Source of the DNA: Escherichia coli
GTDB taxonomy: Bacteria > Pseudomonadota > Gammaproteobacteria > Enterobacterales > Enterobacteriaceae
DNA: 1,761 nucleotides
Direction: 5' to 3' (one strand)
NCBI RefSeq assembly: GCF_003334315.1
Contig: NZ_QOWR01000113.1
Part shown: one piece after another, positions 1,163 through 1,340 of the stretch
Layout: each line of letters starts with the position of its first letter
Position numbering within the stretch: the first letter of the stretch is position 1
Made by a program: the position numbers and the translations under genes
Notes under the pieces: generated by a model
Seen by the model: only the letters and a program-made list of their open reading frames with translations
Databases searched by the model: none
Told to the model about the DNA's origin: nothing

Positions 1163-1177
1163 CAGGGAAAGATCATC
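1163..1177 (+). repeat. 15-bp perfect direct repeat, copy 1 (cagggaaagatcatc)
   Basis: Identical 15-mer recurs at 1326-1340. Confidence 0.8.
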
Positions 1178-1325
1178 GTGTGCCGTAGGCACAAAGATGC
1201 AAAACGGGACATTTTGCATGTAATAAGCATAAGCTTGTGAAGAGATGGTGGCAGGCCCACCGGGATCTGCTGTCGGAAGTCGGTCCCAAACAACCCCGGC
1301 TGCTGTGGTAAAGAGCCATGGTAGC

Positions 1326-1340
1326 AGGGAAAGATCATCA
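1326..1340 (+). repeat. 15-bp perfect direct repeat, copy 2 (cagggaaagatcatc)
   Basis: Identical to 1163-1177, 163 bp downstream. Confidence 0.8.

Follow-up and report, generated by a model that had tools for sequence, protein, structure and literature searches.

A 15 bp direct repeat at the RhsE locus of Escherichia coli as a junction scar among nested mobile elements

Upstream of ydcC, an ISAs1-type transposase gene at the RhsE locus of Escherichia coli, the same 15 bp sequence, CAGGGAAAGATCATC, is found twice on the forward strand, on either side of a segment that differs in base composition from its surroundings. How two identical copies of so short a sequence came to bracket this segment is the question addressed here. 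The window, meaning the whole stretch of DNA analysed, is 1,761 nucleotides in length and contains exactly two copies of the 15-mer, which match one another with zero mismatches; no third copy is found in the window at up to two mismatches. The repeat cannot be lengthened at either edge by even one base, copy 1 being flanked by GGGGCAGATT and GTGTGCCGTA, and copy 2 by GCCATGGTAG and AGAAGTTCAC.

A first-pass annotation, made from the sequence alone, had singled out this perfect repeat as improbable by chance, and this is borne out by both an analytic expectation, for a length of 1,761 bp, of 0.0014 direct pairs of identical 15-mers and a set of dinucleotide shuffles, 0 of 200 of which yielded any match of this type. 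Its measurements require slight adjustment, as the copies are 162 bp apart, start to start, rather than 163 bp, and the segment between them spans 147 bp (1178-1324) rather than 148 bp (1178-1325). This segment is GC-richer than its surroundings, as had been remarked, with 53% GC against 41% upstream and 26% downstream. Both copies also translate as Q-G-K-I-I when read from their first base, as had been stated, but neither lies inside a real gene.

Judged by nucleotide alignment, the 15-mer is instead the outermost 15 bp of H-rpt/ISEc5, an insertion sequence (IS) of the ISAs1 family, present twice. The repeat is a junction scar among three elements, IS1H, H-rpt/ISEc5 and the group II intron E.c.I9, and represents an ordinary nesting of mobile elements (Table 1). 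The earlier suggestion of a recombination scar around the GC-rich segment was thus right in spirit, in that a foreign segment is bracketed by the two copies and the boundaries are junctions between mobile elements. We estimate the probability that all the parts, these being the IS1H remnant, the IS tips, the E.c.I9 stub and ISEc5, are correctly identified at roughly 0.85.

Elements meeting at the repeat

The layout of the locus was taken from the annotated record CP53; window positions equal L001 positions minus 2796.

Table 1. Features of the RhsE window, in order of position
Feature	Position	Strand	Basis or remark
IS1 end	1-204	-	Window begins inside IS1 element
Rhs core protein C-terminal tip	205-615		
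dsORF-e4, small downstream ORF	627-1021		Split in two in this allele
IS1H-type IS1-family remnant	1029-1162	-	BLAST, alignment, RefSeq pseudogene
Copy 1, IS bases 1-15 and intron 5' exon	1163-1177	+	IBS1 ATCATC at 1172-1177
E.c.I9 nt 1-147 stub	1178-1324	+	Identity to ATCC 8739 intron, Rfam RF01999
Copy 2, ISEc5/H-rptE bases 1-15, left terminal inverted repeat	1325-1339	+	Homology break
ISEc5 (H-rptE), left 437 bp	1325-1761	+	RefSeq annotation, homology breaks; continues past window end
ydcC N-terminal 97 codons	1469-1761	+	NF033564

The allele has an IS1 inserted in the C-terminal region of rhsE. The left end of this IS1 (ggtgatgctgccaactt..., minus strand) meets the coding sequence of the Rhs tip at 204|205, a junction that only a few records in the collection span, and then only as several joined pieces. 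The small ORF that follows, dsORF-e4, has a lipoprotein-like start (MKKYIFLVLFLLCGC); it forms one 131-aa ORF in some strains (L002 2423-2818) and, in the window and CP53, two ORFs at 627-812 and 812-1021, which overlap at ...taATGa....

The IS1H remnant retains the right-end inverted repeat of the element and the C-terminal ~33 codons of its transposase, RefSeq recording an 'IS1 family transposase, incomplete' at L001 3839-3937 (window 1043-1141, minus strand, pseudogene). The stretch 1031-1162 is ~94% identical to annotated IS1H elements by BLAST, and on alignment with an intact IS1H the homology breaks sharply after ...GGGGCAGATT at 1162, where copy 1 begins. A candidate reading of the 147-bp segment as the minus-strand continuation of a decayed IS1-family gene was rejected, based on this cessation of IS1H homology at 1162 in both the BLAST and the alignment.

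On the other side of the repeat, the sole ISAs1 gene at the locus is the intact ydcC, 378 aa in full, which RefSeq labels 'ISAs1-like element ISEc5 family transposase'. The NCBIfam model NF033564 (transpos_ISAs1) scores the whole YdcC at 416 bits and the 97 aa within the window at 89 bits, the cut-off being 70. H-rpt copies from elsewhere, the K-12 ydcC element among them, match a query spanning the junction only from 1325, at 100%, and match a query spanning the right end only up to L001 5411-5413, such that the element spans L001 4121-5411, or 1,291 bp. Its termini, CAGGGAAAGAT... and, inverted, CAGGGCAAGAT, agree at 10 of their first 11 bases; at its far end the ydcC element has the sequence ...ATCTTGCCCTG, the inverted form of the first 11 bases of the 15-mer with one mismatch. 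These homology breaks and termini identify copy 2 as the genuine left end of an ISEc5 that is complete at 1,291 bp. The length of H-rpt is reportedly also 1,291 bp, and tandem copies are said to be present in RhsC.

Target-site duplications in the ISAs1 family are 8-10 bp in length. None is found around the 1,291-bp ISEc5, the flanks of which read ...gccatggtag and ggcattattg..., or around the 1,453-bp span running from copy 1 to the right end of the IS, flanked by GGGGCAGATT and GGCATTATTG. The pair GGCAGATT and GGCATTATT, considered as a possible duplication, was dismissed as a mere loose resemblance. No duplication would be anticipated if remodelling of the left junction had followed insertion, and its absence is compatible with membership of the ISAs1 family. 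The arrangement is not a simple insertion.

Strain GF3-3 (H280) matches only the pptA-proximal flank, at query positions 83-141 of L001:5330-5470, starting just past the right end of the IS; this may be an empty, H-rptE-free site, from which the original target sequence could be read. In TUM1881 (L004 3220-3988), an IS1 is inserted 31 bp inside the left end of ISEc5, after ...AGAAGTTCACTTTTTG, adding a further layer of nesting.

The intron stub and its homing site

The segment between the two copies is identical at 147/147 positions to nt 1-147 of the full-length E.c.I9 found in strain ATCC 8739. Its first bases, GTGTG (1178-1182), fit the group II 5' consensus GUGYG at the exon-intron boundary, and position 1178 aligns with the first base both of full-length E.c.I9 and of a complete relative in Sinorhizobium meliloti (L010). 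The Rfam family RF01999 (group-II-D1D4-2) is matched at 1247-1351; the score is 63.5 bits, the gathering score being 36. Posterior probability is high only over 1247-1326, and the tail at 1327-1351 aligns poorly. Other Rfam matches in the region, to snoRNA, lncRNA and miRNA families, were discarded as lying far below their gathering scores. Separate BLAST matches cover only copy 1 and the 147 bp, always just 5' of an ISAs1 gene, at unrelated loci. Public annotation gives the stub no label ('none' under matches).

The ATCC 8739 intron lies at the same pptA-linked locus, is 1,887 nt long and full-length, and encodes a group II RT/maturase (TIGR04416, 424 bits). It is matched by both RF01999 and RF00029 (61.9 bits), the latter ending exactly at the reported 3' end of the intron. 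Domains V/VI and the intron-encoded RT/maturase are absent from the window, and the stub is also devoid of EBS1/2, EBS1 being missing since the stub ends at nt 147. What is left is a dead, non-functional fragment of E.c.I9, itself a bacterial class D, RmInt1-like intron. An IS-end-like motif at intron nt 154-168, CAGGGGGAACGATCA, was considered as an IS attractor or recombination site and set aside as not significant, since shuffled sequences do equally well in 318 of 500 cases for the whole intron and in 125 of 2,000 for its first 220 nt.

The ATCC 8739 intron sits between CAGGGGAAGATCACG and AGAAGTACACTTTTTGTACTAAATAA, corresponding to IS bases 1-15 and to base 16 onward, and its 3' exon (AGAAGTACAC...) corresponds to the window from 1340 onward. 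Based on these flanks and on the identity of the stub, the homing site of E.c.I9 is placed between IS bases 15 and 16, and copy 1 is assigned as a 5' exon. By this assignment copy 1 is all that remains, as an orphaned 5' exon, of an older H-rpt that the intron had invaded, and 1339|1340 is an unoccupied E.c.I9 homing site on the downstream ISEc5. Both edges of the repeat are accounted for in this manner, the 5' edge being the IS terminus and the 3' edge the intron insertion site.

Base pairing between intron and exon is consistent with this placement. A loop of E.c.I9 at nt 263-272 (CAUGAUGAUA) contains GAUGAU, a 6/6 complement of the AUCAUC at 1172-1177. Similarly, the homologous hairpin loop of the S. 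meliloti relative, UAUGGAU (nt 272-278), is a 7/7 complement of the end of its own 5' exon, and in a diverged intron found in an O-antigen cluster this loop has CGUGAU, complementary to AUCACG, an IS end of the ISEc1 type. The assignment of EBS1 is supported by this covariation of the loop with the IS-end variant, and E.c.I9 would thus appear to recognise the IS tip by base pairing of EBS1 GAUGAU with exon AUCAUC. For EBS2/IBS2, no convincing complement of the GGGAA of the 15-mer is found in intron nt 100-500.

The full-length ATCC 8739 copy is itself a less than perfect match, as its own 5' exon (L012 4987-5001, minus strand) ends in ATCACG and pairs at 4-5 of 6 positions with its own EBS1. 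This mismatch, set against the perfect exon found at the dead stub, suggests that recombination replaced the ATCC 8739 exon and flank once homing had taken place, and points to a mosaic origin of the exon variants.

Joints between stubs and IS ends

The architecture of the window is found in thousands of genomes, and the 3' truncations of the intron fall into discrete classes across complete E. coli genomes. Breakpoints occur at nt 96 (L020), at nt 97 with 44 unrelated bp following (L005), and at nt 147 (window and L004), 159 (L003), 193 (L013), 259 (L019) and 460 (L017), H-rpt base 1 coming next in every class. All the stubs examined adjoin base 1 of a complete H-rpt except that of L018 (PS10-3, 1675-2263), in a PAAR/T6SS island, where E.c.I9 nt 1-589 is followed by unrelated DNA with no H-rpt end. 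The downstream H-rpt is of the ATCACGTAACG type at nt 96 and 159, of the ATCATCAGAAG type at nt 147, 259 and 460, and of another type at nt 193; these differences between breakpoint classes argue for separate events. The exact nt-147 junction of the window is present in about 322 of 5,426 complete genomes and is seen with two left flanks, those of the window and of L004.

In K-12, which has no E.c.I9 stub at the RhsE locus, the first base of H-rptE is joined to the interior of another, decayed ISAs1-type element. The junction on the pptA side is constant, while the left side differs among strains (K-12, E24377A and ATCC 8739), a combination that fits frequent recombination within the IS body.

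Partial IS tips are also found stacked beside complete ends. In E24377A (L013 1889-1917) a 13-nt partial tip, CAGGGAAAGATCA, lies immediately 5' of copy 1, and an 18-nt partial tip, CAGGGAAAGATCATCAGG, precedes a complete IS end at L004 3171-3206. L003 and L004 have, at ~2922-3001 and thus 5' of copy 1, ~80 nt from the left end of a diverged H-rpt. The stacked tips (13, 18 and ~80 nt) are all right-truncated, each adjoining base 1 of the next end. The second element at the K-12 RhsE locus (L014 298-1500) is diverged and of the ISAs1 type; it has a CAGGGCAAGATCATG end of its own, its gene is frameshifted, and its last few dozen bases are missing.

The diverged E.c.I9-like intron with the CGUGAU loop lies in the O8:H8 O-antigen gene cluster, with gmm on one side and an LPS biosynthesis gene on the other (L015 3368-4971). 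It has lost nt ~129-182 internally, between CTGT repeats, its RT is truncated and an IS256 fragment interrupts it; a complete H-rpt end follows, again from base 1. Three matches in which the intron begins at nt 183 (H301-H303) were considered as the reciprocal product of the nt-193 insertion, with an 11-bp target duplication, and were found instead to be internal deletions of the L015 type.

A single intron-bearing IS holds bases 1-15 only once; the window has a complete ISEc5 whose base 1 directly follows intron nt 147. Copy 1 stems from an older H-rpt that had inserted into an IS1H element, and this H-rpt was then invaded by E.c.I9 between IS bases 15 and 16. We propose that intron nt 147 was subsequently linked to the very last base of a second, intron-free H-rpt, the remaining intron and the body of the old H-rpt being lost. 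There are two versions of these last steps. The intron-free H-rpt may have inserted, in the same orientation, into the intron of the invaded H-rpt, after which recombination between the two 1.28-kb direct IS repeats would have deleted the remainder of the intron and one IS body. Alternatively, the change may have occurred in one step, from a tandem arrangement in which the left end of the downstream H-rpt mediated an adjacent deletion. The end product of either version is [IS 1-15][intron 1..N][complete IS].

Joints falling exactly at an IS terminus are a hallmark of transposase strand transfer. As the joints described here fall on the terminal base of the IS, a precision that deletion, gene conversion and cDNA-mediated loss do not predict, joining of the transposase type is favoured, and a junction made by transposase, followed by loss of the remainder, is the mechanism towards which we lean. 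An un-collapsed intermediate, in which the right end of an H-rpt is followed by the resuming intron, is found in none of the 5,426 complete genomes.

Two alternatives concern the nature of the 15-mer itself. The first-pass annotation proposed that the copies mark the DGK(T/I) and KGKII coding positions of a decayed ISAs1/H-repeat transposase gene at 1163-1340, an explanation with some initial appeal, since each copy reads QGKII from its first base and their 162-bp spacing is near the distance separating these motifs in the protein. The region is composed of IS tip and intron, with no decayed ISAs1 gene: the inter-copy segment is E.c.I9 sequence rather than ISAs1 coding sequence, and the only ISAs1 gene is intact from 1469, with its motifs encoded beyond the window. 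The true KGKII codons, AAAGGAAAAATCATC, are at L001 4757-4771 (window-equivalent about 1961-1975) and resemble the 15-mer at 12 of 15 positions, a likeness that probably prompted the motif reading; it is at chance level, a match with three mismatches being expected 0.16 times per 7.5 kb. Nor are the two 15-mers independently conserved codons of the transposase, the refuting outcome named in the same annotation, as both align with the non-coding IS bases 1-15 and represent one terminus occurring twice. A decayed gene is refuted by these alignments. Even less weight attaches to a chance match, or a local duplication by replication slippage, devoid of biological meaning: such an origin is favoured by the short length of the repeat and nothing else, and is at odds with the expectation and the shuffles given above and with the recurrence of the architecture in so many genomes, while slippage would have duplicated the intervening segment as well, which is not so. 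We consider this origin negligible.

Two others accept the identity of the parts and concern their assembly. The 1,453-bp span comprising IS tip, stub and ISEc5 might be a mobile composite, with copy 1 acting as an alternative outer end, that transposed whole into IS1H and other loci. The first base of copy 1 does adjoin varied DNA, including the IS1H remnant, a diverged H-rpt fragment, a PAAR-island ORF and the O-antigen cluster, and even the nt-147 junction alone has its two left flanks. This variety is equally explained by an older H-rpt having inserted at these places before the intron arrived; moreover, the span is without a target-site duplication, and a pptA-side junction that stays constant despite different left sides fits homologous recombination better than repeated transposition, making a composite unlikely. 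Slightly more so is an origin free of transposase, through deletions or gene conversions of an intron-bearing H-rptE, with the second 15-mer restored from an intron-free H-rpt or from the cDNA of a spliced transcript. For other systems, the loss of introns by way of reverse transcriptase is well established as a concept, and both the full-length orthologue at the same locus and the missing nested-insertion intermediate speak for such an origin. Deletion within a single intron-bearing IS cannot, however, make a second copy of bases 1-15, and the recombination and cDNA routes give no cause for a joint exactly at IS base 1, a position at which at least six intron breakpoints, with different H-rpt variants, all join, as does the K-12 joint.

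The proposed joining of an intron-free H-rpt to the intron may be taken a step further. Counted as footprints, the joints comprise those at nt 96, 147, 159, 193, 259 and 460, the 13-, 18- and ~80-nt tips and the K-12 joint, and these might be traces of real, recurrent activity of the H-rpt transposase on its own disabled copies, by which the IS would repeatedly escape the intron parasitising its terminus. We regard this extension as plausible but tentative and, for the present, less likely than not. If true, it would describe a natural arms race between two selfish elements, in which each escape regenerates an empty homing site beside an intron remnant, and would constitute the first evidence of activity for H-rpt, long held to be immobile and for which no transposition activity has been observed according to the literature (PMC3032704). 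Taken by themselves, the joints are indirect evidence that H-rpt ends serve as substrates for joining of the transposase type.

Relation to known systems

The components described here, and the existence of E.c.I9 stubs, are already in the literature; what is new is detail, in the form of the nt-147 class and an account of how the direct repeat arises. The chief effect is to correct how a repeat beside a transposase gene was read at the level of annotation. According to Leclercq & Cordaux (2012, PMC3522654), the 'Rhs IS (=ISEc1-5)' is the specific target of both E.c.I2 and E.c.I9, each at a position of its own. Their Tables S2/S3 include E.c.I9-tr2, of 159 bp, in E. coli B strains, and E.c.I9-1/tr1, of 193 bp, in E24377A, Sakai and others, in Rhs regions. 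The stub in the window shares with these entries the intron, the host element (ISEc1-5), an intact 5' junction and a 3' truncation, and with tr1 also the RhsE locus. It differs from them in its breakpoint, at nt 147 rather than 193 or 159, a class absent from the list of 90 genomes given there (PMC3522654). The portions of that paper on which this comparison draws contain no remark that stubs adjoin a restored IS terminus, the source of the 15-bp direct repeat. The presence of a restored IS terminus after nearly all truncated E.c.I9 copies bears on how group II introns become inactivated, and so on the extinction models treated in PMC3522654.

Outside E. coli, the closest relatives of the stub are in Sinorhizobium/Rhizobium, with ~79% identity over the D1 motif, those of Sinorhizobium being of the RmInt1 type. 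RmInt1 of S. meliloti is a class D/IIB3 intron without an endonuclease domain that resides in ISRm2011-2. The complete S. meliloti relative L010 comprises the D1 motif (RF01999), a 419-aa ORF and domain V/VI, an architecture like that of full-length E.c.I9; its 5' exon differs from the published RmInt1 target, and L010 is thus a relative and not necessarily RmInt1 itself. RmInt1 homes into an insertion sequence by EBS1-IBS1 pairing of 6-7 bp (PMC3123198), as E.c.I9 appears to do. By contrast with RmInt1, the host of E.c.I9 belongs to the ISAs1 family, the homing site is in the non-coding tip of the IS, 15 bp from its end, and the window holds only a dead 147-nt stub.

The H-rpt elements of Rhs loci, ISEc1-ISEc5, have in common with the element in the window the ISAs1 transposase, the CAGGG termini, the length of 1,291 bp and a place 3' of an Rhs tip and a small ORF. 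At K-12 RhsE, too, tandem or truncated H-rpt copies meet at an exact IS end, and what sets the window apart from these is that its upstream partner is reduced to 15 bp and an intron stub.
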